Notes under the pieces: generated by a model
Database searches by the model: none
What the model saw: the letters and a program-made list of their open reading frames with translations, nothing else
What the model was told of the DNA's origin: nothing
Shown here: piece after piece, positions 11,439 to 60,098 of the stretch
Numbering within the stretch: the stretch's first letter is position 1
Layout: each line of letters opens with the position of its first letter
Program-made: the position numbers and the translations under genes
Assembly (NCBI GenBank): GCA_947165505.1
Contig: CAMVAT010000017.1
Span: 7,253 to 71,252 of the forward strand
Source of the DNA: an uncultured Prevotellaceae bacterium
GTDB lineage: Bacteria; Bacteroidota; Bacteroidia; Bacteroidales; Bacteroidaceae
Length of the DNA: 64,000 nt
Reading direction: 5' to 3'

Positions 11439-11474
11439 AAAATCCCCTGATTTTTGTCAAAACCAGGGGATTTT
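11439..11474 (-). terminator. intrinsic terminator hairpin after the FKBP operon
   Basis: AAAATCCCCTG...CAGGGGATTTT forms an 11-bp stem flanked by U-rich sequence on both strands. Confidence 0.5.
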
Positions 11475-11500: not shown

Positions 11501-11532
11501 GGAGTATAGGAGTATAGGAGTATAGGAGTATA
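11501..11532. repeat. tandem octamer GGAGTATA x4
   Basis: Four perfect tandem copies read directly from the sequence. Confidence 0.95.
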
Positions 11533-11563
11533 GACAATAGTTATTGCAATTGTACCACATATC

Positions 11564-11638
11564 TCCTACCACCTGCCCCTTGCCCCCTGCCCCAAAACTA
11601 TCCTCCTACCTCCTGCCCCTTGCCCCCTGCCCCTAAAA
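11564..11638 (-). repeat. two tandem ~35-nt copies (40-nt period) of the G-tract module (sense strand GGGGCAGGGGGCAAGGGGCAGG), abutting the FKBP stop codon
   Basis: TCCTACC(A/T)CCTGCCCCTTGCCCCCTGCCCC(A/T)AAA occurs at 11564-11597 and again at 11604-11638. The stop codon is at 11639-11641. Confidence 0.95.
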
Positions 11639-14154: not shown

Positions 14155-14226
14155 CAATATTTTCACGATTACCTTATTATATTTGAAAAAAAATGCGTAT
14201 TTTTGTACTTTGTTAAGAAAATAAAA

Positions 14227-14298
14227 GAGGTGAGAGGTAAGGGGTAAGAGGTGAGAGGTATGCCAAGAACACTAAACACTAAACACTAAACACTCAAC
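14227..14298 (+). repeat. two adjacent heptad arrays: GAGGTGA/GAGGTAA/GGGGTAA x5, then AACACTA x3 plus AACACTC
   Basis: Read directly. The arrays end 13 nt before the cobB ATG. Confidence 0.95.
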
Positions 14299-14311
14299 AA
14301 CCAATAGAATC

Positions 14312-20511: not shown

Positions 20512-20972
20512 TTACCTCTGCAAATGAGCTATGATTACCAAACAGCAGACCCTATGTTATACAGTCTGTTGAAGGATTTAGCCAAAAAGAATCGTGAGCA
20601 TCCCACTCCTGCCGAGTCAGCTCTTTGGAAATTCCTGAAAAACAATGCCCTGGGATGCACCTTTAAGAGACAACATATCGTAGGTGCTTATATCGCTGAT
20701 TTTATCTGCATCCAGGCAAGGTTAATCATTGAGATAGATGGTGGATACCATCAACTGCCCGAACAGCAAATCAGTGATTTGGAGCGTCAACAATGGCTGG
20801 AGTCTCAAGGTTTCAAGGTAATCAGATTCACCAATGAAGAGGTAATGGCAGACATTGAGCGAGTAATAGATACAATAGAACGTTTTACATAGCCAACAAA
20901 GAATACATGGAATCAAATATCAACAACAACAGTAATTATTCCTCCCCCTCGGGGGAGGCCAGGTGGGGGGCT
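20475..20972. mobile_element. candidate mini-cassette: a DUF559 gene bounded by ~37-bp inverted repeats
   Basis: The left arm at 20475-20511, reverse-complemented, is TTATGCCTCCCCCTCGGGGGAGGAAAGGAGGGGGGCT. The right arm at 20936-20972 is TTATTCCTCCCCCTCGGGGGAGGCCAGGTGGGGGGCT. The enclosed gene is AT-richer by hand count: about 40% G+C in its first 60 nt versus about 57% in the last 60 nt of korA. Confidence 0.4.
20524..20892 (+). CDS. DUF559 (Vsr/PD-(D/E)xK-fold) endonuclease-domain protein
   Basis: PTPAESALWKFLKN...FKRQHIVGAYIADFICIQARLIIEIDGGYH...QWLESQGFKVIRFTNEEV is the typical DUF559 pattern (D...E.DG..H, then R.. and V.RF.N). Confidence 0.8.
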   Translation: MSYDYQTADPMLYSLLKDLAKKNREHPTPAESALWKFLKNNALGCTFKRQHIVGAYIADFICIQARLIIEIDGGYHQLPEQQISDLERQQWLESQGFKVIRFTNEEVMADIERVIDTIERFT

Positions 20973-22022
20973 TCTGACATCAACAACAACAGTAACTATT
21001 CCTCCCCCTCGGGGGAGGCCAGGTGGGGGGCTTCTGACTTCAAAAAAGGGCAGCCCCGTTGGTGTCCCGGTTGTGGCGACCACTTCTTCCTGGCATCACT
21101 CCATAAAGCATTGGCCGAGATAGGCGTGGCTCCCTACGACACCGCCGTCATCTCTGGCATCGGCTGTTCCAGCCGTCTGCCCCACTACATGGCTACCTAC
21201 GGCATGAACACCATCCACGGGCGCGCTGCCGCCATCGCCACAGGCGCCAAGGTGGCCAACCCCCGCCTCACCATATGGCAGGTGAGCGGCGACGGCGACG
21301 GTCTGGCTATCGGCGGCAACCACTTCATCCATGCCAACCGCCGTAATATCGACCTCAATATGATTCTGCTCAACAACCGCATCTACGGTCTGACCAAGGG
21401 ACAGTACTCACCCACCTCACCGCGCGGATTCGTGTCGAAGTCGAGCCCCTACGGCACCGTCGAAGACCCGTTCCGCCCGGCTGAACTGTGCTTCGGCGCA
21501 CGCGGACATTTCTTCGCCCGTGCCGTAGCCACCGACACCGCCGGCACGGTAGAGGTGCTCAAGGCCGCCTACGAGCACAAGGGCGCCTCGGTGTGCGAGA
21601 TACTGCAAAACTGCGTCATCTTCAACAATGGCACGCACGACTTGGTCTATACCAAGGAGGGACGTAAGAAAAACGCCATCTACGTGCGCCACGGCGAGAA
21701 ACTCGTGTTCGGCGAGAACAACGAATACGGCCTGGTGCAGGACGGCTTCGGCGTGAAGGTAGTGAAGATAGGCGAAAACGGCGTCACCCTCGACGATATC
21801 CTGGTGCATGACGCCCACTGCCAGGACAACACCTTGCAGCTGAAGCTGGCTATGATGACACCCGAAGACGGATTCCCCATCGCCCTCGGCGTCATCCGCG
21901 ACGTGGAGGCTCCCACCTACGACGCTGCCGTGCACGAGCAGATTGCAGAGGTGAGCGCACAGAAGAAATACCACAACTTCACCGAACTGCTCGAGACCAA
22001 CGACATCTGGGAGGTGAAATAG
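20907..22022 (+). CDS. korB: 2-oxoglutarate:ferredoxin oxidoreductase subunit beta (TPP-binding)
   Basis: RWCPGCGDHFFL, GIGCSSRLPHY and GDGDGLAIGGNHFIHANRRN (TPP-binding GDG...N). The only in-frame ATG is at 20907, so about 45 N-terminal residues come from cassette and repeat sequence. Confidence 0.85.
   Translation: MESNINNNSNYSSPSGEARWGASDINNNSNYSSPSGEARWGASDFKKGQPRWCPGCGDHFFLASLHKALAEIGVAPYDTAVISGIGCSSRLPHYMATYGMNTIHGRAAAIATGAKVANPRLTIWQVSGDGDGLAIGGNHFIHANRRNIDLNMILLNNRIYGLTKGQYSPTSPRGFVSKSSPYGTVEDPFRPAELCFGARGHFFARAVATDTAGTVEVLKAAYEHKGASVCEILQNCVIFNNGTHDLVYTKEGRKKNAIYVRHGEKLVFGENNEYGLVQDGFGVKVVKIGENGVTLDDILVHDAHCQDNTLQLKLAMMTPEDGFPIALGVIRDVEAPTYDAAVHEQIAEVSAQKKYHNFTELLETNDIWEVK
20919..21038 (+). 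repeat. 60-bp tandem duplication (2 units, 1 mismatch) inside the 5' end of korB
   Basis: ATCAACAACAACAGTAA(T/C)TATTCCTCCCCCTCGGGGGAGGCCAGGTGGGGGGCTTCTGAC occurs at 20919-20978 and again at 20979-21038. It is translated as INNNSNYSSPSGEARWGASD twice. Confidence 0.95.
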
Positions 22023-31725: not shown

Positions 31726-33075
31726 TTATCTATTATTCGTGATGCTCCGGCCGGCACACACCAGCAGCACCCTGCTGCCGTCGGCGCGGGTGGTGGCGAA
31801 GAGGTAATGGCTGCCGCCGTCGGCCAGACGCAGGCGGCGGCGCAGGTCGGCCACCGACAGGGGGAAATTCCTGACGGTGATATTGGCGCGCTCGATGCCA
31901 CAGAGGGCGTCGCGCAGGTCGCGCTTGTTGAGCGTGCTCTCACGGTCGATGCGAAACTGCCGCCCGGGGAAGTCGGCCACCGGCGCATCACTCACCAAGA
32001 GATGGCTGTTGGCGGCGATGGCCCGCAGACCGTAGCGCCGGCATACCTCGCCAAAGCACCCGGCTTTCATCAATGCCGCATTCGGCTCACAGAGCCAGCG
32101 GCCATCAAGCCGCTCACCTCCCTCTACGATGGGCACGGCTATCCCCTGTCCCTGATCCGGACAGTAGGTAAACACCTGTTCGTCGTTGACACAATCTATC
32201 TTCAGGTGAGAGCATTGTCCGTGTGGCTGCCCCTCTTGAGCGTCCTCCTCTTTGTCAGTTGATAGTGGAGATACGATTACGAGAAGCTCCTTGCACTCAT
32301 TGCCCGTGGCCACGATATGCACCTCGCGTACCACATCGGCCCCCGCGGCAAGATTCAGCTCTGCCACCACCTGGTGCCAGTCGAGCATGGGCGAGAGCTT
32401 CAGCATGACACAAGCGGCACGCTGCAACAACAGTGGCATCAGCCGGCACACATCGGGTGTGCAGTCGGCGATGGCGTAGGTGCGCTGCCCATGCTCGTCG
32501 CGCCGCGCCGGGTCGGCATAGATGAGCGAGGCGTAGGGCAACGTGGGCAACAACTCGGCAGAGTCGCCACAGAGCACTTCGGTCTGCCGCAATCGCAGCA
32601 GGGCGAAGTTGTGCCGTGCGATGTCACAGAGCTCTGACTGCCTCTCTATATAAAAGGTACGCGCGAAGTGCGTGGCCAGGGCGGCATGGTCGATGCCGAA
32701 ACCGCCCGTCAGGTCTATCAGTATCTTTTCAGCCTCGTGGGCTGCCTCGCCGTCAGCAACACCAGGGTGCGCCATCCATCTGCGGACCAGTTCGGCTTTA
32801 TAACGTGCGGTCTGCTCAGACGAGCATTGCTCCATGGCCAACTGCGGAGGGTAGATAATGCCCTCGACAGCGGTCCAGGAGGGCAGTTTGGTGCGTGCCT
32901 TCTGCCATCCGGCTATCTGCTCCACCACCCACCGGCGGTCGATACCAGGCTGCTTGGCGGCCTTCAGCGCCACCTCGCGCACATCCTCCTCACGATGGGC
33001 AAGGATGAAAAGCGTTGAGTGTTGAGTGTTGAGTGTTGAGTGTTCGCTTCGCGATGAAAAATTGAGAATTGCCAA
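31726..33075 (-). CDS. class I SAM-dependent methyltransferase with a THUMP-like C-terminal domain
   Basis: LIDLTGGFGIDHAALA (motif I) and LIYADPARRDEHG (motif IV-like). The first ~22 codons (MAILNFSSRSEHSTLNTQHSTL) are encoded by AATTGCC and CACTCAA tandem repeats, so the true start is uncertain. Confidence 0.7.
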   Translation of the reverse strand: MAILNFSSRSEHSTLNTQHSTLFILAHREEDVREVALKAAKQPGIDRRWVVEQIAGWQKARTKLPSWTAVEGIIYPPQLAMEQCSSEQTARYKAELVRRWMAHPGVADGEAAHEAEKILIDLTGGFGIDHAALATHFARTFYIERQSELCDIARHNFALLRLRQTEVLCGDSAELLPTLPYASLIYADPARRDEHGQRTYAIADCTPDVCRLMPLLLQRAACVMLKLSPMLDWHQVVAELNLAAGADVVREVHIVATGNECKELLVIVSPLSTDKEEDAQEGQPHGQCSHLKIDCVNDEQVFTYCPDQGQGIAVPIVEGGERLDGRWLCEPNAALMKAGCFGEVCRRYGLRAIAANSHLLVSDAPVADFPGRQFRIDRESTLNKRDLRDALCGIERANITVRNFPLSVADLRRRLRLADGGSHYLFATTRADGSRVLLVCAGRSITNNR

Positions 33076-33145
33076 TTGCCAATTTAGAGGTTAGAGGTTA
33101 GAGGTATGAGGTAAGAGACGAGTTGTTGAACGACAGTGAAAAATA
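33014..33145. repeat. stack of tandem heptads (GTTGAGT x4, AATTGCC x2.5, TAGAGGT x4) plus a 33-nt unique arm; left copy of a 61-bp inverted repeat
   Basis: Read directly. 33085-33145 matches the reverse complement of 34301-34361 at 57 of 61 positions. Confidence 0.95.
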
Positions 33146-33184
33146 ACTTCGTTGCAGAGAAAGATAAATCGAGAATCAATCAAC

Positions 33185-33216
33185 AAGTAGGGACAGGGCA
33201 CGCCCTGTCCCTACTT
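33185..33216. repeat. palindrome AAGTAGGGACAGGGCACGCCCTGTCCCTACTT (REP-like hairpin)
   Basis: Near-perfect 32-nt palindrome. Related copies lie at 34231-34256, 57716-57741 and 57773-57798, with half copies at 41596-41613 and 58353-58366. Confidence 0.95.
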
Positions 33217-33255
33217 ACGTGGCGAGGCTTTATAACTGCGCCCCAACAGTAATCA

Positions 33256-33290
33256 CAAAGCTCAAAGTTCAAAGCTCAAAGTTCAAAGTC
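33256..33290. repeat. tandem heptads CAAAG(C/T)T x5, abutting the lemA stop codon
   Basis: CAAAGCTCAAAGTTCAAAGCTCAAAGTTCAAAGTC, read directly. Confidence 0.95.
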
Positions 33291-33292
33291 CC

Positions 33293-33880: not shown

Positions 33881-33916
33881 AATGATATTTATTTAATTAG
33901 TATATGATTTTCAGTT

Positions 33917-34361
33917 CACAATGCACAATGCACAATGCTTCCGTTCGGGTGGAACCAGCGGTCGGCGGCCGAAGGGAAAGCCAATTGCAATCCACCCGCA
34001 GAGAGCAGATGGATTTGCAATCCATCCACTATTATTCTTTCCCCACCCAACCCTCCCATGGGAGGGCTTCCAACCTATCCCTAAACCCCTTCCCAATCCC
34101 TAAGAAGGGACTTAACCGCTCCTACCCGTCGCTCGTTCACTAAGGTACTGCTCCCTTTTTCTGCCGGTCGCAGTATTGTTTTAGGCAACAGAGTTGCGAT
34201 TATTTGTGTTCGCTCCGCTCACCGTGCTGCGGACAGGGCACGCCCTGTCCCTACTTGCGTGGAGAGCATATCTCCTGCCCCCTGCCCCTCGCCCCAAAGC
34301 TATTTTTCACTGTCGCTCAACAACTCGTCTCTTACCTCTTACCTCTTACCTCTTACCTCTA
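33917..34361 (-). repeat. largest composite repeat element; it fills the TPM-lemA spacer
   Basis: Module order in the sense (minus) direction: TACCTCT heptads, unique arm, G-tract, palindrome, the ~190-nt element also present at 5184-5352, GGATTTGCAATCC, the GGTGGAACC...TCCACC hairpin (also at 41649-41697), and CACAATG x3. Confidence 0.9.
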
Positions 34362-34363
34362 TA

Positions 34364-41502: not shown

Positions 41503-41516
41503 CCACCGAAATCCTA

Positions 41517-41921
41517 AAGAGGTGAGAGGATAGTTGAGGGGCAGGGGATTTCTGAGGGGCGGGGAGCAAGGTGCAAGGGGCAGGAGATTACTTTGCCGCC
41601 CTGTCCCTACTTCCAAGCACTAAACCCTCAACCCTACCCCTCCGTTCAGGTGGAACCAGCGGTCGGCGGCCGAAGGGAAAGCCAATTGCAATCCACCTGA
41701 GTAGAAGAAAAAGCATTTGCAATGCTGCTCTCGGATTTCAAATCCTGTATTCCATGCGTCAGGATTACAAATCCCGACGAACGGGGACTTTGAACATTGA
41801 ACATTGAACTTTATGATTACCTCTCTATCCCCCATTTATCGTGATAGGCGTACTATCTGCTCCCCTCCCTACAAGGGAGGGGCTGGGGGGTGGGTCTGAT
41901 TGCAACTAAACCCTCAACCAA
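41517..41921 (+). repeat. composite repeat element filling the leader of the fructan regulator
   Basis: Module order: AAGAGGTGAGAGGA, G-tract 41537-41588, half palindrome, CACTAAACCCTCAACCC, the GGTGGAACC...TCCACC hairpin, three GGATTNNNAATCC-type palindromes, TTGAACA x2.5, the CCCCTCCC-TACAA-GGGAGGGG hairpin, and CTAAACCCTCAACCAA abutting the ATG. Confidence 0.9.
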
Positions 41922-44429
41922 ATGAAATATCTGCGACTATTTCTATACTTCACTGCCATGACACTATTGACGGCTGCGTGCGCCGACAACGACACACGCT
42001 ACCGCATCGGCGTGTCGCAATGCTCGGAAGACATCTGGCGCAACTGGCAAAACGCGGAAATGAAGATGGAGGCCAACTTCCACGACGGCATTGAACTCAT
42101 CTTCGCCTCGGCGCAAGACAACAGCGAGCGACAGACACAACAGATCGACAGTCTGGTGGCGGCCGGCATCGACCTGCTCATCGTGGCGCCCAACCAACTG
42201 CAAAACGTGTCGCCTGCCATCGACCGCGCCTACGACAAGGGAATACCCGTCATCGTGTTCGAACGAAAGACCGACTCGCAAAAATACACCGCCTTCATGA
42301 GCGCCGACAACTATGAGATGGGACGGCAGATGGGACAGTACATCGCCACGCGCATGGGGGGCAAGGGACGTGTCATGGAGATTCTCGGACTGAAAGGCTC
42401 TTCGCCCGCCGACGAGCGCCACAAGGGTTTCCGAGAGGTCATCGACAATTACCCGCAAATAGAGGTGACAGCCGAACTGCAAGGCGACTGGACCGAAGAG
42501 ACGGCCTATGGGCAGGTGCTGCAATACAAGGGCGACCTGTCACAGATTGATATGGTGTTCGGACACAACGACCGAACGGCCATCGGTGCACGACGCGCCT
42601 TCATCGAGCGCGGCGAAGACAGCACACTCACCCTCTTCTGCGGCATCGACGGACTCGCCGGGGCCAACGGGGGCATTCAGCAGGTGCGCGACTCGCTGCT
42701 CGAGGCCAGCTATATCTACCCCACACGAGGCGACCTGCTGCTCAAACTGGCGCTCGATATCCTCGACGGTAAGCCATACGAGAAAGAGACGCTGCTCAAG
42801 TCGGCCATCGTCACACACGACAACGCGCAGGTGCTGCTGCTCGAAAGCGACGAGGTGATGCGACAGGCGAAAAACCTTGAACAGATGCACCAACAGGCCG
42901 ACAACTATCTCAAAGAACTGGCCAACCAACGCACGCTGACACTGCTCGCCATCGGTTTCATCATCCTGCTATGCCTGCTGCTCGCGGCTATCTACCTCTA
43001 CTTCAGGCAGAAAGCACGCATCGCTGCCGAACGGACGAAAATGGAGCGCGAACAGCTCGACTTCTACACCCAGGTGAGCCACCAACTGCGCACGCCGCTG
43101 ACACTCATCGAGGGACCGCTCGACCAACTGGCACTGACCGACGACATCCGGCAGGCCGACAAGCAGGCAGCAGACCTCTTCGCCATCGTCAGACGAAACA
43201 CCCGACAGTTGGCACAGCTCATCAACCGCATGCTCGACGCGCAAGCAGGAGGCAGCATCGACGACGACAGTGCCGCACAACACGTACAGACCACGACCAT
43301 AACGACAGAGACGACAGACAATCACCTACACGCTGATACGGCCGTTCACGACGACATTCCTGCCGACGACGACCGCCACACGCTGCTCATCGTGGACGAC
43401 AATGCCGACATACGCGCCTACCTGCGGCATATACTCAAAGACAAATACCACATCTGCGAGGCCGCCGACGGACAGGAAGGACTGCGAGTGGCCAACGAAC
43501 AAGTGCCCGACCTGATTGTGTCTGACGTGATGATGCCCGTGATGAACGGACTGGAATTCTGCCAACACATCAAGAAAGACATGATCACCAGCCATATACC
43601 CGTGATCCTGCTCACCGCGCGCGCCCTGAGCCAACACCAGATTGAGGGATATGAGAGCGGGGCCGACGCCTATCTGACCAAGCCCTTCTCGGCCGAACTG
43701 CTCACCGCCCGCATCGACAACCTGCTGCAAAGCCGCCAACGCCTCAAAGTGCTGTGGGGCGACACCGAGGAGCTTTCTGAGGGGATTTCCGAGGGGCAGG
43801 GGCTTTCCGAGGGGCAAGGGGCAGGGGGCAAGGGGCTTTCTGAGGAGCAGGGAGCAGGGGGCAGGGGGCAGGAGAATACTATCCCCATCACGAAAGCTAA
43901 TGTCCAAACTCCTACACTCCCAAACTCCCAAACTCCCAACTCCCTAAACGACCAAACAACCACCTCCCCAAACTCCCAAACTCCCAAACTCCCAAACTCC
44001 CAAACTCCCAACTCCCTAAACGACCAAACAACCAAACAACCAAGCGACCAACTCCCCTCCCCCCAAAACGCTTTCATCGAGCGGTTTAAAAAAGTGGTGG
44101 AGCAGCATCTCGACAACAGCGACCTAAGCGTGGAAGACCTGAGCGCTGAGATGCACCTGAGCCGCGTGCAACTATACCGCAAGGTGAAGGCACTCACGGG
44201 TTACAGTCCCATCGACCTGCTGCGCAAGGCACGTCTGGCTCGCGCACACGCCCTGCTCAAGGCTGACAATGAGCTCTCCGTGAGCGAGATAGCCTACCAG
44301 ACGGGATTCTCATCGCCCTCGTACTTCACCAAATGCTTCAAAGAAGAATACGGCATCGTGCCGGGAGAGGCAAGAAAGACCTCCCCCTCAGAAAAAATAC
44401 AAAATCCTTGCAAATGTGATTTTTTTTGA
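41922..44429 (+). CDS. hybrid two-component-like regulator: periplasmic sugar-binding (PBP1) sensor, TM, HisKA, receiver, AraC HTH; no HATPase_c domain
   Basis: PBP1/LacI-type periplasmic domain (IGVSQCSEDIWRNWQNAEM...LIVAPNQ...GIPVIVFER). TM helix LTLLAIGFIILLCLLLAAIYLYF. H-box FYTQVSHQLRTPLTLIEGPL. REC domain LLIVDDNADIRAYL...DLIVSDVMMPVMNG...ILLTA. HTH_AraC SVSEIAYQTGFSSPSYFTKCFKEEYG. This is the architecture of the fructose-sensing BT1754 type minus the ATPase domain. Confidence 0.8.
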   Translation: MKYLRLFLYFTAMTLLTAACADNDTRYRIGVSQCSEDIWRNWQNAEMKMEANFHDGIELIFASAQDNSERQTQQIDSLVAAGIDLLIVAPNQLQNVSPAIDRAYDKGIPVIVFERKTDSQKYTAFMSADNYEMGRQMGQYIATRMGGKGRVMEILGLKGSSPADERHKGFREVIDNYPQIEVTAELQGDWTEETAYGQVLQYKGDLSQIDMVFGHNDRTAIGARRAFIERGEDSTLTLFCGIDGLAGANGGIQQVRDSLLEASYIYPTRGDLLLKLALDILDGKPYEKETLLKSAIVTHDNAQVLLLESDEVMRQAKNLEQMHQQADNYLKELANQRTLTLLAIGFIILLCLLLAAIYLYFRQKARIAAERTKMEREQLDFYTQVSHQLRTPLTLIEGPLDQLALTDDIRQADKQAADLFAIVRRNTRQLAQLINRMLDAQAGGSIDDDSAAQHVQTTTITTETTDNHLHADTAVHDDIPADDDRHTLLIVDDNADIRAYLRHILKDKYHICEAADGQEGLRVANEQVPDLIVSDVMMPVMNGLEFCQHIKKDMITSHIPVILLTARALSQHQIEGYESGADAYLTKPFSAELLTARIDNLLQSRQRLKVLWGDTEELSEGISEGQGLSEGQGAGGKGLSEEQGAGGRGQENTIPITKANVQTPTLPNSQTPNSLNDQTTTSPNSQTPKLPNSQTPNSLNDQTTKQPSDQLPSPQNAFIERFKKVVEQHLDNSDLSVEDLSAEMHLSRVQLYRKVKALTGYSPIDLLRKARLARAHALLKADNELSVSEIAYQTGFSSPSYFTKCFKEEYGIVPGEARKTSPSEKIQNPCKCDFF
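43766..44066 (+). repeat. about 300-nt composite repeat translated in frame in the REC-HTH linker
   Basis: G-tract (GAGGGGCAGGGGC...GGGGCAGGGGGCAGGAGAAT) followed by CCCAAACT octamers and two copies of CCCAACTCCCTAAACGACCAAACAACC. This is the same module order and polarity as the intergenic elements. Confidence 0.9.
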
Positions 44430-53304: not shown

Positions 53305-53527
53305 GGGCAGGGAGCAGGGGGCAGGAGATATGCTCCGAGCACCCCGCAATAAACCAGGAATAACCCCGGAAATTCCGGAGAAACCGGAATTCCGGAAAAT
53401 CCGCCGCCCCCCCGAAAGCCCCCTCAACCCTAAACCCTAAACCCTCAACCCTAAACCCTCAACCCTCAACCCTAAACCCTCAACCCTCAACCCTCAACCC
53501 TAAACCCTAAACCCTCAACCCTCAACC
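53304..53527 (+). repeat. composite repeat filling the GH32-MFS spacer, ending in 15 tandem CCCT(C/A)AA heptads
   Basis: G-tract starting at the G of the TAG stop codon, then ATGCTCCGAGCACCCCGCAATAAAC, CCGGAAATTCCGG and CCGGAATTCCGG palindromes, then the heptad array at 53421-53525. The ATG is at 53533. Confidence 0.95.
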
Positions 53528-53532
53528 AAAAA

Positions 53533-57440: not shown

Positions 57441-57595
57441 TTCTCTTTGCTTTTTTTGAGTTAGTAATACAATTTGTCTCTCTCTGTCTTATTCAGACGG
57501 TGCAAAGATAACGTCAAATGATGCTCCGCTCCAAATCTTTTCCCTCACGCTGTATGAAATGCCCCCTTTTTTGTACGAAATGGAGGGCTTCTTTG

Positions 57596-57905
57596 TTGAG
57601 GGTTGAGGGTTGAAGGTTGAGGGTTGAGGGTTGAGGGTTGAAGGTTGAGGGTTGAGGGTTTAGTGTTGAGGGTTCTAGCAGGGTTTTTGTTGAGGGTTGA
57701 GTGTTGAGTGTTTGGAAGTAGGGACAGGGCGTGCCCTGTCCGCAAGAAGCCGGCATTTGATATTCTCACTACGGACAGGGCACGCCCTGTCCCTACTTGC
57801 GCGGAAAAGTAATCTCCTGCCCCTTGCCCCCGGCCCCTCAGAAAAACCCCTGCCCCTAAGCTATCTACTCCCCTCCCTACAAGGGAGGGGCGGGGGTGGG
57901 TCTGC
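57596..57905 (-). repeat. composite repeat filling the ybeY-lipoprotein spacer
   Basis: Module order in the sense (minus) direction: CCCCTCCC hairpin (it holds the ybeY stop codon), G-tract 57811-57856, two palindrome copies 57773-57798 and 57716-57741, CTTCCAAACACTCAACACTCAAC, then 11 heptads (plus strand TTGAGGG/TTGAAGG/TTTAGTG) at 57596-57672. Confidence 0.95.
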
Positions 57906-58314
57906 TCACCATCTCCAGCGCCTTGTTTTCGGCGGCCTCCATCTGTTCGCGCTCTCCGGGTCCTTTGTCATTGATGCCGCAGAGGTGCAGGATGCCGTGT
58001 ATGATGACGCGGTGCAGTTCGGTATCGTAGTCTGTATGCTGCTCCTCTGCGTTAGATCGCACGGTGTCGAGCGAGATGACGATATCGCCGTTGATGGTGT
58101 CGCCCTCGTCGTAGTCGAAGGTAATGATGTCGGTATAGTAATCGTGGCCCAGGTATTGGCGGTTTACCTCGAGTATCTTCTCGTCATCTACGAAGAGGTA
58201 TCCCACCTCGCCTATTTTCTTGCCGTACGAGGCGGCCACCTGTTTGATCCAGGCCGTTGTGTCGCGTCGCCGTATTTTCGGCATCGGCACGTTTTCGTGA
58301 TTGTATGTTATCAT
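57877..58314 (-). CDS. ybeY: rRNA maturation endoribonuclease YbeY
   Basis: HRVIIHGILHLCGINDKGPGE is the H..H.....H zinc motif. The last ~9 codons (SRPTPAPPL) are encoded by a repeat hairpin. Confidence 0.85.
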   Translation of the reverse strand: MITYNHENVPMPKIRRRDTTAWIKQVAASYGKKIGEVGYLFVDDEKILEVNRQYLGHDYYTDIITFDYDEGDTINGDIVISLDTVRSNAEEQHTDYDTELHRVIIHGILHLCGINDKGPGEREQMEAAENKALEMVSRPTPAPPL

Positions 58315-58352
58315 AGTTGTTTTTGGGGAGTTTAGACATTAGTTATCGTGGT

Positions 58353-58477
58353 TGGAAGTAGGGACGAACTCGTTCGTTGGGATTTGCAATCCCGACGCAT
58401 GGAATATCAGGATTTATAATCCGAGAGTAGCATTGCAAATCTCTCACCTCTCACCTCTCACCTCTTACCTCTTACCT
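58353..58477 (-). repeat. composite repeat filling the coaD-ybeY spacer
   Basis: CACCTCT/TACCTCT heptads at 58441-58477 abut the coaD stop codon. Then GCATTGCAAAT, GGATTTATAATCC, GGGATTTGCAATCCC and a half palindrome. Confidence 0.95.
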
Positions 58478-58915
58478 CTATATAGGCAGAAACTCACTGA
58501 CATCCCGTCCGAAATGCTCCAGTTCGCGCACCATCGTCGAACTGACGCAGGCCAATGCGGGATCGGCAGGCAGCAGCAGGGTGTCGATGCCGCTGATACG
58601 TCGGTTGATATCGGCCTGTTCGCGCTCATATTCGTAGTCTTTGACGCTGCGCACGCCCTTGACGATGACGCCGGCCCCTTCGCGCCGTGCGAAATCGACC
58701 GTCAGGTCACTGTAGGCCTTCACCTCCAGTCGCGGTTCATCGGCATATCGTTGCCTGATGGCGTTGATGCGCTCCTCGGTCGTCTGCCGGTATGTCTTCC
58801 TCTCGTTGACCCCCACGCCCACAATCACCTGGTCGAAGAGTGCCAGTGTGCGCCGTACGATATCGTCATGACCGATAGTAAAGGGGTCGAAACTGCCAGT
58901 AATCAATGCTTTCAT
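58478..58915 (-). CDS. coaD: pantetheine-phosphate adenylyltransferase
   Basis: MKALITGSFDPFTIGHDDIV (the T/HxGH motif) and ...ISSTMVRE. Confidence 0.9.
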   Translation of the reverse strand: MKALITGSFDPFTIGHDDIVRRTLALFDQVIVGVGVNERKTYRQTTEERINAIRQRYADEPRLEVKAYSDLTVDFARREGAGVIVKGVRSVKDYEYEREQADINRRISGIDTLLLPADPALACVSSTMVRELEHFGRDVSEFLPI

Positions 58916-58934
58916 GTGTTGTGGTTTGTTCTTT

Positions 58935-59069
58935 TTATTGAGTGTTTAGGGCCGGGCTTTCTGGGCTTTCCGAGTTTATTGCGGGGTGCTCGGAGCATAT
59001 CTCCTGCCCCCTGCCCCCTGCCTCCTGCTCCCTGTCCCTTGCCCCAAAATATCCTCTTACCTCTCACCT
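58935..59069 (-). repeat. composite repeat filling the ruvB-coaD spacer
   Basis: Module order in the sense direction: GAGGT heptads at 59053-59069 abutting the ruvB stop, G-tract 58999-59045, ATGCTCCGAGCACCCCGCAATAAAC (the same 25-mer as at 53330-53354), and CCTAAACACTCAA. Confidence 0.95.
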
Positions 59070-60098
59070 CTAAAACAGCGTCGGCTCCATGATATTGCCT
59101 TGATAGGGGTTGCGCCCCAGGTGTTGGTAGGCCAGAGGTGTGACCATACGTCCGCGTGGTGTGCGTTTGATGAATCCCTCCATGATGAGGAAGGGCTCAT
59201 ACACCTCCTCCACCGTGCCTGCATCTTCGCCGATGGCGGTGGCGATGGTAGAGATGCCCACGGGGCCGCCTCGGAACTTATCGATGATCGTGAGCAGTAT
59301 CTTATGGTCGATGTCGTCGAGCCCGTACTGGTCGATGTTGAGCGCCTGCAGCGACAGCCGTGCGATGCTCATGTCTATGCGGCCGTCGCCGCGCACCTGT
59401 GCGAAGTCGCGCACGCGCCTGAGCAGCGCATTGGCGATACGTGGCGTGCCGCGGCTGCGCCGTGCTATCTCGTGTGCCGCCTCTTCGTCGATGGGCACGC
59501 CCAGTATGCCTGCCGAGCGCCGTATGATGTGCATCAGCGTGTCGGGGTCGTAGTACTCCAGGTGCAGGTTGATGCCGAAGCGGGCGCGCAGGGGTGCCGT
59601 GAGCAGTCCGCTGCGTGTGGTAGCGCCCACGAGGGTGAAGGGGTTCAGGTCTATCTGTATCGACCGTGCCGACGGTCCTTTGTCGATCATGATGTCGATG
59701 CGATAGTCTTCCATGGCGCTGTAGAGGTATTCCTCGACCACGGGCGACAGTCGGTGTATCTCATCGATGAAGAGCACGTCGCGCGGCTCGAGCGAGGTGA
59801 GGATGCCAGCCAGGTCGCCGGGCTTGTCGAGCACCGGTCCCGAGGTGAGTTTGAACCCCACGCCCAGTTCGTTGGCGATGATATTGCTCAGGGTAGTCTT
59901 GCCCAGTCCGGGGGGGCCGTGCAGCAGGGTGTGGTCGAGCGGTTCGCCGCGGTATTTGGCGGCCTCTACAAACACCTCCAGGTTTTCCACCACCTTCTGT
60001 TGTCCGCTGAAGTCGCCGAAGCTCAGGGGTCGCAGCGCGTTCTCGAAATCCTTTTCGCCGCGTGCCCCTTCGTGTCTGATGTCGAAGTTGTCGTTCAT
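59070..60098 (-). CDS. ruvB: Holliday junction branch-migration helicase RuvB
   Basis: [13 protein letters not shown] (Walker A), [10 protein letters not shown] (Walker B) and [19 protein letters not shown] chose the start [11 protein letters not shown] at 60098. Confidence 0.9.

Follow-up and report, generated by a model that had tools for sequence, protein, structure and literature searches.

Composite intergenic repeats in a Prevotella genome as ordered, BIME-like mosaics of REP palindromes and heptad arrays

The spacer at 57441-57876, downstream of ybeY in a 64,000-nucleotide stretch of DNA from an uncultured Prevotellaceae bacterium (hereafter the window), contains short repeats that recur in other spacers of the same stretch. 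What are these composite repeats, and why do they keep one order and follow the direction of the genes? The composites are best read as BIME-like mosaics that join two known kinds of bacterial repeat, REPs and slippage-prone heptads, in a combination that is apparently undescribed.

One module set is common to ten loci in the 64-kb window and keeps a single order throughout. Read in the sense direction, the 5′ half runs from GAGGTRA heptads or the CCCCTCCC hairpin through GATAGCTT to a GGGGCAR tract ending in GGAGAT, and the 3′ half runs from a hairpin core through CTTCCAA and C/A-rich heptads to the ATG. The original prediction had assigned these modules to particular spacers, claimed a shared order and put the number of loci at eight or more. 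The modules are present in the spacers it named, at the coordinates given, and alignment A1 places nine copies, drawn from the window and sister contigs, in collinear order. Loci not named at first are 14226-14299, 33011-33289 and modules lying in frame within three genes (43760-44055, 20919-21043 and 57877-57905). In A1, 57811-57868 aligns with 41519-41589 and with the contigs L003 and L002. The G-tract GGGGCAGGGGGCAAGGGGCAGGAGATW has eight matches in the window (at most three mismatches) and none in 100 shuffles, and the 25-mer (two exact copies) and the palindrome (four copies) are likewise absent from shuffles, while CTTCCAARCACTMAAC, with only two copies, is not beyond chance when taken alone. 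Tandem arrays of period 7, defined as head-to-tail 7-nt units in at least three copies, number 15 (570 nt) in the window, compared with 3, 5 and 0 for periods 6, 8 and 9, and 13 of the 15 are intergenic. As had been claimed, the composites of the window carry no ORF, no transposase and no spacer-like unique units. A CRISPR array was rejected: the units are head-to-tail without spacers, and the hairpins are irregularly spaced.

The anatomy is seen most fully in the cluster around ybeY, coaD and ruvB (57441-59073), whose modules other than the inverted REP doublet lie on the minus strand. The composite next to ybeY starts at 57870-57905 with the sense sequence CAGACCCACCCCCGCCCCTCCCTTGTAGGGAGGGG, within which the hairpin CCCCTCCC-TTGT-GGGAGGGG overlaps the final codons and the stop of ybeY; the YbeY C-terminus ends in EMVSRPTPAPPL here, in SMLTVER in L001 and in YLLK in the sister species L132. 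There follow a GTAGATAGCTT linker and the G-tract GGGGCAGGGGTTTTTCTGAGGGGCCGGGGGCAAGGGGCAGGAGATT (57811-57868, the part aligned in A1), a REPIN-like doublet of two inverted GTAG double-foot palindromes 25 nt apart (57718-57797), and a CTTCCAA junction with about 16 C/A-rich heptads (CCCTCAA, CACTCAA, CACTAAA and CCTTCAA; 57595-57722), which are unpaired in the predicted fold. The doublet folds as one 30-bp hairpin (z = -6.5), the sole helix that survives in the centroid structure. The rest of the spacer (57441-57594) is unique, non-repeat DNA with a promoter-like region and the leader of an 80-residue gene. L001 and L132 conserve this part yet have no composite. Its TAnnTTTG-type box TATCTTTG (57503-57510) is, going by Bacteroides promoters, what we take to be a promoter motif. 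Since the repeat part is thus 57595-57876, extending into ybeY as far as 57905, the claim that composites fill whole spacers fails here; it is correct only for three operon-internal spacers (53305-53532, 58315-58477 and 58916-59069), which are filled from stop to ATG.

In the coaD-ybeY spacer (58315-58479, all repeats), five GAGGTRA heptads run from the stop codon; three hairpins (GCAATGC, GGATTATAAATCC and the CGTC-tagged GGGATTGCAAATCCC) come next, and after them CCCTACTTCCAA and a C/A-rich tail to the ATG. Copy number at this spacer is different in L001, L002 and L120, and the sister species has only 79 nt. The ruvB-coaD spacer (58916-59073, also all repeats) comprises GAGGTRA heptads, the G-tract, GGAGAT, the 25-mer ATGCTCCGAGCACCCCGCAATAAAC, CCCTAAACACTCAA and an A-rich leader, and a different module set occupies the same place in L001 and L003.

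The other loci draw on the same set. On the plus strand, the GH32-MFS spacer (53305-53532), made entirely of repeats, carries a G-tract from the stop codon, the 25-mer, a CCGGAATTCCGG hairpin region and 15 CCCTMAA heptads, the last one 5 nt 5′ of the ATG. The 5′ leader of a hybrid two-component regulator gene (41505-41921, plus strand) lies 3′ of a terminator-like hairpin and a TAATTTTG box; its first part holds GAGGTGAGAGG, a G-tract, a truncated REP (GCCCTGTCCCTAC), CTTCCAA and heptads, and its later part a GGTGGA...TCCACC module, CGTC-tagged hairpins, TTGAACA heptads and an inverted CCCCTCCC hairpin unit (41853-41898). Five GAGGTRA heptads and then 4.6 CACTAAA heptads form the 5′ leader of a Sir2-family gene in a divergent spacer (14226-14299, plus strand), where they end 12 nt before the ATG and a TATTTTTG box lies about 25 nt upstream. 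On the minus strand, the TPM-LemA spacer (33881-34363) has GAGGTAA heptads at the stop, a GAGACGAGTTGTTGAGCGACAGTGAAAAATA unit, a G-tract, a REP, a 107-nt repeat (34041-34147), GGATT hairpins and CATTGTG heptads 5′ of the ATG. The spacer 3′ of LemA (32836-33292) contains CAAAGYT heptads, an exact REP at 33187-33214, AATTGCC repeats, CACTCAA heptads (33011-33044) and an inverted A-heptad unit (33084-33145), and the 3′ UTR of an FKBP gene (11501-11638) has two G-tract units from the stop codon and then four TATACTCC octads, all 5′ of a terminator-like hairpin and the next promoter-like box. An in-frame copy with TTTCYGAGGGGC, G-tract modules and CCAAACTC octads (43760-44055, plus strand) lies between the receiver and AraC domains of the two-component regulator gene and lengthens the linker by ~80-95 residues, compared with linkers of 15-30 residues in homologues (alignment A2).

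The 28-nt palindrome GTAGGGACAGGGCRYGCCCTGTCCCTAC is a GTAG-tagged double-foot REP, with a 5′ foot GT[AG]G and a 3′ foot C[TC]AC. The copy at 33187-33214 reads GTAGGGACAGGGCACGCCCTGTCCCTAC, and three more copies have 2-3 mismatches; together with one truncated copy, all in the 64 kb are intergenic, and 57718-57797 is an inverted dimer of the REPIN type. The identical 28-mer occurs in 115 stretches from many classes of Bacteroidota and from other phyla, and 14 of 121 copies lie in frame within RayT ORFs of other genomes. There it follows MPNH[VI]H directly on the 3′ side in an HUH/Y1 ORF and is translated as VGTGHALSL. The ORF is identified as RayT by NCBIfam NF047646 (E = 8e-19), PDB 4ER8 TnpArep (E = 7e-7), Pfam Y1_Tnp and the JGI name 'RayT'. 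A REP in frame inside the transposase gene is the hallmark of TnpA_REP subclass 2.4, for which the double foot was also defined (PMC6006769). The Prevotella REP shares with the GTAG double-foot REPs of RayT subclass 2.4 (Bertels group 4) the 5′ GTAG and 3′ CTAC feet, GGG/CCC at the stem base, extragenic copies with an inverted doublet, and an identical 28-mer that, in RayT genes elsewhere, separates the HUH motif from the Tyr motif. Unlike them, it is one module of a longer ordered mosaic, there is no RayT in the window, and the loop centre is CACG/CGTG, compared with CATG in most other genomes. When searched by tblastn, the window and the contigs L001-L003 and L119-L122 gave no RayT gene; Prevotella is not represented among the named top matches of the RayT family, and no paper was retrieved when full texts were searched for the palindrome or the peptide it encodes.

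A second REP type is present in GGATT-NNN-AATCC hairpins bearing CGTC...GACG end tags. The CGTC REP superfamily has been reported in Bacteroidetes (PMC3733652). Of the two tagged hairpins in the window, 41757-41779 reads CGTCAGGATTACAAATCCCGACG and the one at about 58375-58397 has one mismatch; L002 has an exact copy, and sister contigs give 18 strand-wise matches to the GGATT-hairpin pattern. As in the CGTC-tagged REPs of Di Nocera et al. (2013), the arrangement is CGTC-(A/G)GGATT-NNN-AATCCC-GACG and close pairs are able to co-fold, whereas the Prevotella hairpins are set in a fixed three-hairpin unit beside heptads. REPs and conserved non-REP motifs follow one another in a set order, as the nine-copy alignment shows and as is typical of a BIME. 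The BIME/REP analogy first drawn for these spacers is right, and more literal than supposed, given a true GTAG REP and CGTC-tagged hairpins. Like enterobacterial BIMEs, the composites are REP mosaics in probably transcribed intergenic regions of operons and vary among strains; they differ in phylum, in their integral heptad arrays and in their marked polarity relative to transcription. We rejected membership itself, since the sequences show no relationship (Bacteroidota GTAGGGACAGGGC and GGATT stems here, Y/Z REPs and the named extra-REP motifs there): the composites work like BIMEs without being such.

The initial view that the elements belong to no described family is right for the composite seen in Prevotella and for its lineage-specific modules, none of which occurs in 744 kb of further loci that bear REPs, and wrong for REPs and heptamer arrays, which have been described before. 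The Rfam comparison, proposed earlier as a check, gave no spacer match at the gathering threshold or at E ≤ 0.5, a tRNA-Met being the sole match at the gathering threshold. A metagenome scan with the G-tract/25-mer junction gave four matches, two in Prevotella relatives and two in unrelated GC-rich contigs. Viral scans yielded GAGGTRA arrays in six assorted phage contigs and one G-tract match within a gene, a chance match, and an exact-protein search for sister loci found no match. The BrickBuilt MITE of Porphyromonas gingivalis (Bacteroidales) is also modular and intergenic, with a tandem-repeat core between fixed end modules, but its units are 23 nt long, its ends are inverted repeats and it has promoter activity in both directions, in contrast to the 7-nt units and absence of inverted ends in Prevotella. 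BOX elements of Streptococcus pneumoniae are likewise modular and intergenic, with a tandem-repeat core between fixed end modules.

The heptads also have published counterparts. Intergenic heptamers are G-rich on the sense strand in the first 50 nt past a stop codon and on the antisense strand in the last 50 nt ahead of a start (PMC4692102). The arrays here obey the same rule, with two weak exceptions (33084-33105 and 33912-33938), and are in this respect identical to the heptamers of Rehm et al. (2015) from Xanthomonas and Nostoc. With these, cyanobacterial STRR and heptanucleotide long SSRs, they share the 7-nt unit, intergenic enrichment and copy number that varies among relatives. On the other hand, the Prevotella units are different, occur several per spacer and are physically joined to REPs, and the arrays lack the GGGNATC-type unit, the four-unit preference and the canonical G4 motif of the Rehm heptamers, their G4 potential being weak. 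MacGregor (2015) described TAACTGA heptamers in Beggiatoaceae, cyanobacteria and a few Bacteroidetes (PMC4679880). These too form forward arrays that end a few nt before start codons without Shine-Dalgarno sequences, and in some Bacteroidetes mixed heptamers occur in spacers, with reverse copies within ORFs; unlike the Prevotella arrays, they are built from another unit and have no described REP or G-tract partners. As a separate observation, GAGGUGA, arrayed at stop codons, is the exact complement of the 3′ tail of 16S rRNA, UCACCUC.

Turnover of the composites is rapid. At orthologous spacers, module content and copy number differ among sister strains and species, and the differences in presence and copy number that the original prediction suggested looking for were found. 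Heptads and octads vary between strains by whole units (4 vs 5 heptads; 1 vs 4-6 octads), and about 310 nt of the spacer 32836-33292 are missing in the sister strain L123. In the sister species the composite is absent from the same spacers, while the layout, with a G-tract behind the stop codon and C/A repeats ahead of the ATG, is kept with other unit sequences.

The G-tract is in sense in all eight copies, at seven loci on alternating strands, and polarity therefore follows transcription, not replication; a replication-linked orientation was rejected because orientation flips with the gene strand several times in 64 kb. Eight of nine spacers have every heptad, G-tract, 25-mer and junction module in the sense direction, and the polarity statistics count about nine independent spacers. 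Polarity is strong, but the strictness claimed at first is overstated, since the A-heptad unit 33084-33145 and the CCCCTCCC-hairpin unit 41853-41898 are inverted. Along the sense strand, GC skew passes from positive to negative. Over 39 starts, the stretch from -30 to -1 contains 46% A and 12% G, in agreement with published data (PMC6847099), and the C/A heptads are unpaired in predicted folds. Intrinsic termination by the hairpins was rejected: they have no T-runs, and no sense terminator is predicted within 57441-59069. Long-range pairing between G-rich 5′ and C-rich 3′ halves was also rejected, as it appears in minimum-energy folds and not in centroids, and one spacer (z = -0.8) folds no better than shuffles.

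We consider it probable that the composites are mosaics of two kinds of repeat, REPs spread by RayT and heptads produced by slippage, with orientation filtered at the transcript level. Both REP types (GTAG double-foot and CGTC-tagged GGATT) would be recognised and spread by RayT of subclass 2.4. We infer such mobilisation in the present genome, where the cognate RayT may be encoded elsewhere, or the REPs may be relics of past RayT activity. The 7-nt (and some 8-nt) arrays would grow and shrink by replication slippage, their likely generator, and recombination would reshuffle them between spacers. The mosaics would lie within transcription units, in 3′ UTRs before terminators, between operon cistrons and in 5′ leaders after promoters, and selection on the RNA would be the cause of their polarity. 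Purine/G-rich GAGGTRA and GGGGCAR units would be kept beside the upstream stop, and only the G-free, C/A-rich orientation (CCCTMAA, CACTMAA) would be tolerated beside the next ATG, because Bacteroidota initiate without Shine-Dalgarno pairing and need A-rich, unstructured leaders. Since the central hairpins have no T-run, they are probably 3′-end barriers or stabilisers and decoupling structures, not terminators. Leader selection accounts for the start-proximal end, not for G-rich units exactly at stop codons. Against the proposal, the window and the sister contigs searched gave no RayT gene; the non-REP modules are lineage-specific, and RayT therefore need not move them; the C/A heptads of 57595-57876 occupy a position 5′ of the next promoter instead of a leader; and the two inverted modules (33084-33145 and 41853-41898) also count against it.

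The same polarity could reflect a dedicated RNA cis-element, in which the G-rich/hairpin half protects or processes the upstream 3′ end, the C/A half is a single-stranded bS1 ribosome pad and heptad number tunes output. This seems unlikely to us, although the composites are sense-oriented within predicted transcription units, the sister species builds the same layout from different units, the C/A arrays are unpaired and stop 5-12 nt short of the ATG, and the same role was proposed by MacGregor for TAACTGA repeats (PMC4679880). Close relatives whose flanking housekeeping genes are identical or near-identical have short versions of these spacers with no repeats, and the elements are therefore dispensable; moreover, modules are also found in ORFs and upstream of promoters, and the flanking genes have no functional theme.

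We give little credence to two further explanations. By one, the composite is a cassette made for intercistronic positions in Bacteroidota, which are blind to Shine-Dalgarno sequences. GAGGUGA arrays would capture or titrate ribosomes with an exposed anti-SD, e.g. bS21-free ribosomes, at the stop codon; the REP hairpin would set the 3′ end of the upstream mRNA; and G-free heptads, as a landing pad for bS1, would reload ribosomes on the cistron that follows. The arrays would arise by RayT nicking at the REP foot and primed slippage, which would explain tandem repeats that abut REPs here and inside RayT genes. By the other, the whole composite is a non-autonomous, MITE-like cassette whose orientation is fixed mechanically by ssDNA insertion into the transcription-displaced strand. 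Stretches of at least 120 nt in fixed order at unrelated loci (e.g. 57690-57895 vs 41505-41640), presence/absence polymorphism and the single-strand substrate of Y1 transposases (PMC6006769) point in this direction. However, at the one site compared in filled and empty form (window vs L123), there are no terminal inverted repeats and no target-site duplication, as a MITE would have, and the filled site shows several separate, piecemeal expansions around retained native sequence. Copies also differ through module swaps, not by gain of whole units, and two modules are inverted in otherwise sense composites.

A role at the DNA level, through G-quadruplex/i-motif, cruciform or gyrase/nucleoid-protein sites (as in BIME-2 and BIME-1) that insulate supercoiling between transcription units, is very improbable. 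The G-tracts and the (TTGAGGG)n strand are rich in G-runs, the doublet 57718-57797 is strongly cruciform-capable, related heptamers form G4 in vitro (PMC4692102) and BIMEs offer a precedent (PMC6006769), but canonical G4 motifs are barely enriched (8 in the window vs 3.3 in shuffles) and a double-strand binding site would not require transcription-linked polarity. The sole heptad array that gives a canonical motif is (TTKAGGG)n at 53407-53521, most arrays being interrupted every third unit or having only three G-runs, and we rejected the G-quadruplex as the organising principle. Phase-variation switches, in which heptad number toggles neighbouring genes, can be dismissed almost entirely: copy number does differ between strains (4 vs 5 heptads; 1 vs 4-6 octads), but the arrays lie outside reading frames or, where inside, amount to a multiple of three, the neighbours are housekeeping (ruvB, coaD, ybeY) or metabolic genes, and Rehm et al. 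were likewise negative for their heptamers (PMC4692102).

The two-kind mosaic extends REP/BIME biology, nearly all of which was established in Proteobacteria, to a genus dominant in the gut and rumen, and ties one exact 28-nt REP to a phylum-crossing RayT lineage. The repeats rewrite protein termini and linkers, as in YbeY, KorB and a sugar-sensing regulator, and in Prevotella they seem to interrupt metagenome assemblies and to cause errors in gene calling. Strain-variable repeats of this kind could serve as strain markers, and the polarity of the heptads is a natural experiment on the mRNA leader content that is permissible in a phylum without Shine-Dalgarno pairing.

Every intergenic spacer that the original prediction described as built from one small module set contains those modules, and nine copies from the window and its sister contigs align collinearly, in agreement with the predicted, largely constant module order. 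Read in the direction of the local genes, GAGGTRA heptads or a CCCCTCCC hairpin are followed by GATAGCTT, a GGGGCAR tract (hereafter G-tract) with an optional TTTCTGAGGGGC, and GGAGAT; then come either a segment beginning ATGCTCCGAG or TACTTT with a REP, the CTTCCAA junction, and CACTMAA/CCCTMAA heptads. The G-tract is present in eight copies at ≤3 mismatches (0 in 100 shuffles), the palindrome in four and the alternative 25-mer core in two exact copies, and there are 15 period-7 tandem arrays, versus 3, 5, and 0 for periods 6, 8, and 9. Additional loci lie at 14226‒14299 and 33011‒33289 and as in-frame copies within genes. Whole spacers were predicted to be filled, but only three operon-internal ones are occupied from stop to ATG; 57441‒57594 is a unique promoter/leader segment conserved in relatives without the repeats. 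Two further dispersed repeats without an Rfam match measure 107 nt (5188‒5294 and 34041‒34147, containing the hairpin CCCTCCCATGGGAGGG) and 57 nt (33940‒33996 and 41640‒41700, containing the hairpin GGTGGA...TCCACC).

The window comes from an uncultured Prevotella; among the proteins that cluster with its RuvB at 90% is one named Prevotella sp. by NCBI. It has a GC content of 54% and carries a fructan utilization locus (hybrid two-component regulator, SusC/D-sized genes, GH32, and MFS) and, on the minus strand, the ruvB-coaD-ybeY operon. A tRNA-Met (CAT) gene upstream of ruvB (60234‒60308) is its sole Rfam or ARAGORN match. Between convergent genes, a 32-nt unit with a strong terminator-like hairpin is repeated 2.5 times (55679‒55774). 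On balance, we favor the reading that the composites are BIME-like mosaics, in which REPs would be spread in trans by the REP-associated tyrosine transposase RayT or be remnants of its activity, heptad arrays would be made by slippage and shuffled by recombination, and module orientation would be filtered at the RNA level.

The G-tract is sense to the local genes in all eight copies, with those at 11.6, 34.3, 57.8, and 59.0 kb on the minus strand and those at 41.6, 43.9, and 53.3 kb on the plus strand. Since module orientation switches with gene strand several times in 64 kb, it follows transcription, not replication direction. In eight of the nine composite spacers, a small number of independent cases on which the polarity reading rests, every heptad, G-tract, 25-mer, and junction module is sense. 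The polarity is not as strict as predicted: an A-heptad unit (33084‒33145) and a CCCCTCCC-hairpin unit (41853‒41898) are inverted relative to transcription. The latter reads identically on the plus strand at 57870‒57905, where the local genes run in the opposite direction. In six of the nine spacers, sense-strand GC skew drops from values of +0.1 to +0.8 over the first third to values of -0.5 to -1.0 over the last. Promoter-like TAnnTTTG boxes, a motif known from Bacteroides, occur upstream of composites at 14196 and 41495 and downstream of one at 57503‒57510, and a terminator-like hairpin lies 3' of a composite at 11440‒11470. Together with the absence of predicted sense terminators in the ruvB-coaD-ybeY spacers, these positions suggest that the composites are located inside transcribed regions.

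Upstream of the window's 39 start codons, the adjoining 30 nt average 46% A and 12% G, and the C/A heptads are unpaired in predicted folds. In Flavobacterium, A-rich, weakly structured leaders tune translation initiation without SD pairing (PMC6847099). These observations lend support to a putative orientation filter at the start-proximal end. Each GAGGTRA unit contains TAA or TGA, and three units close all three reading frames, which is enough to explain why the arrays begin exactly at stop codons. The favored reading leaves the stop-proximal preference for G-rich modules unexplained, and it is further weakened by the few independent spacers and by finding no RayT gene in the sequence available. 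That the composite is a selected RNA cassette is a tentative alternative, which we consider rather unlikely.

Spacer turnover is rapid: contigs with identical CoaD differ in the corresponding spacers in GAGGTRA units (five vs four), in AAACTCC octads (one vs four to six), and, between ruvB and coaD, in three different module sets. A strain with identical LemA lacks ~310 nt of composite downstream of lemA. The native sequence that the arrays expanded around is still present in it, and neither inverted ends nor a target duplication can be seen at this one filled-versus-empty site. Insertion of the composite as a single mobile cassette into the transcription-displaced strand seems improbable to us. 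In the sister species GCA_017548275.1, the coaD-ybeY spacer is 79 nt without hairpins and no composite lies 3' of ybeY. Since the ruvB stop still has a G-tract there and C/A-rich repeats still precede the coaD ATG, built from different units, layout is more conserved than sequence. About 25 GAACRTK heptads in a row separate two convergent genes in the sister species (L132, 7428‒7634), so the lineage has other heptad families as well.

Repeats also enter genes. The fructan-locus regulator contains ~300 nt of G-tract modules and CCAAACTC octads, in frame and sense (43760‒44055), where its receiver and AraC domains are joined by a linker some 80‒95 residues longer than in homologues. A hairpin module overlapping the 3' end of ybeY (57877‒57905) rewrites the C-terminus of YbeY, which has 145 aa in the window vs 137, 140, and 150 aa in relatives. 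At the KorB N-terminus, 60 bp are tandemly duplicated in frame, and the duplication includes a related hairpin. Between two 2-oxoacid:ferredoxin oxidoreductase subunit genes, a DUF559 (Vsr-like endonuclease) gene (20524‒20892; region 20470‒21043) is bracketed by CCTCCCCC-GAG/TCG-GGGGGAGG hairpins, one of which ends the upstream ORF and two of which lie within the KorB duplication. The arrangement resembles a small selfish insertion, and each of three further contigs with the gene ends just past it.

The palindrome, GTAGGGACAGGGCRYGCCCTGTCCCTAC, was found exactly in 115 stretches (one genome per species) from Balneolia, Saprospiraceae, Chryseobacterium, Cytophagales, Chitinophagaceae, Sphingobacterium, and several Bacteroidales MAGs, and also from Spirochaetaceae, Ignavibacteriaceae, Chloroflexi, and one Limnohabitans MAG. 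Of 121 occurrences, 14 are in frame within an ORF, directly after MPNH[VI]HGI, where the palindrome is translated as VGTGHALSL. This ORF matches the NCBIfam REP-associated tyrosine transposase (E 8e-19), although the insert interrupts the match and thereby keeps its score under the curated cut-off. It also matches the structure of E. coli TnpArep (4ER8; E 7e-7) and, after insert removal, Pfam Y1_Tnp; JGI names its large family 'REP element-mobilizing transposase RayT'. RayT subclass 2.4, reported as common in Cyanobacteria and Bacteroidetes with scattered occurrence in other groups, has 'double foot' REPs (5' GT[AG]G and 3' C[TC]AC) that are inserted in frame in the HUH-Tyr motif interval of the transposase gene (Quentin et al. 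2018, PMC6006769), a description that the palindrome and its in-gene copies match exactly. No RayT gene was found in the window or the sister contigs searched, and none of the family's top named matches is from Prevotella. The palindrome pair at 57718‒57797 is a REPIN-like inverted doublet predicted to fold as one 30-bp hairpin. The GGATT-NNN-AATCC hairpins bear CGTC...GACG tags like those of the CGTC REP superfamily reported in Bacteroidetes, where REPs supplying stop codons and REPs within genes are documented (Di Nocera et al. 2013, PMC3733652). The predicted BIME/REP analogy is thus borne out by both hairpin types.

In Saprospiraceae and other MAGs (L009, L012, L020, L023‒L025, L027, L039, and others), the precise midpoint of longer palindromes that differ at every site is occupied by the REP, as if inserted into loops of pre-existing hairpins, e.g., terminators. 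In the RayT ORFs L006, L017, L058, L087, and L107, it is flanked by 9- or 18-nt tandem repeats (QSQ..., VGTGHD...), multiples of three, whereas arrays near REPs outside genes have units of 7 or 8 nt. Tandem duplication beside REPs may generally characterize this REP/RayT lineage. In REP-bearing loci of other phyla, period 7 is the commonest among periods ≥5 nt, at ~1/5 of the window's density, and the non-REP Prevotella modules are absent.

Intergenic heptamer tandem repeats are a described class with a sporadic distribution. G-rich heptamers of Xanthomonas and Nostoc lie mostly <50 bp after stops in sense or <50 bp before ORFs in antisense, are transcribed, and differ in length among relatives, with function not known (Rehm et al. 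2015, PMC4692102). TAACTGA arrays stop a few nt short of start codons that lack an SD sequence and also occur in some Bacteroidetes, with mixed heptamers in their spacers (MacGregor 2015, PMC4679880). The Prevotella heptads share the strand rule of the former, but their units are unlike either. GAGGTRA arrays occur in six unrelated phage contigs (L124‒L129, IMG/VR; GC 38% to 62%), and in three (L125‒L127) they again lie directly against a stop codon when sense or a start codon when antisense. We set aside G4 formation as a basis, since the window's 8 canonical G-quadruplex motifs barely exceed the 3.3 found in shuffles. It is quite improbable that the composites serve at the DNA level as structures or binding sites, and a role of the heptad arrays in phase variation is highly improbable.

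The ingredients of the BIME-like mosaics that we favor, REPs and heptads, are already published, as is the strand rule, and the predicted lack of a described family does not extend to them. What appears to be new is that a gut or rumen Prevotella joins GTAG and CGTC REPs to several heptad families and a G-tract in a set order. No Rfam family matches this ordered combination, and neither the palindrome sequence nor such composites in Prevotella appear in the literature searched.
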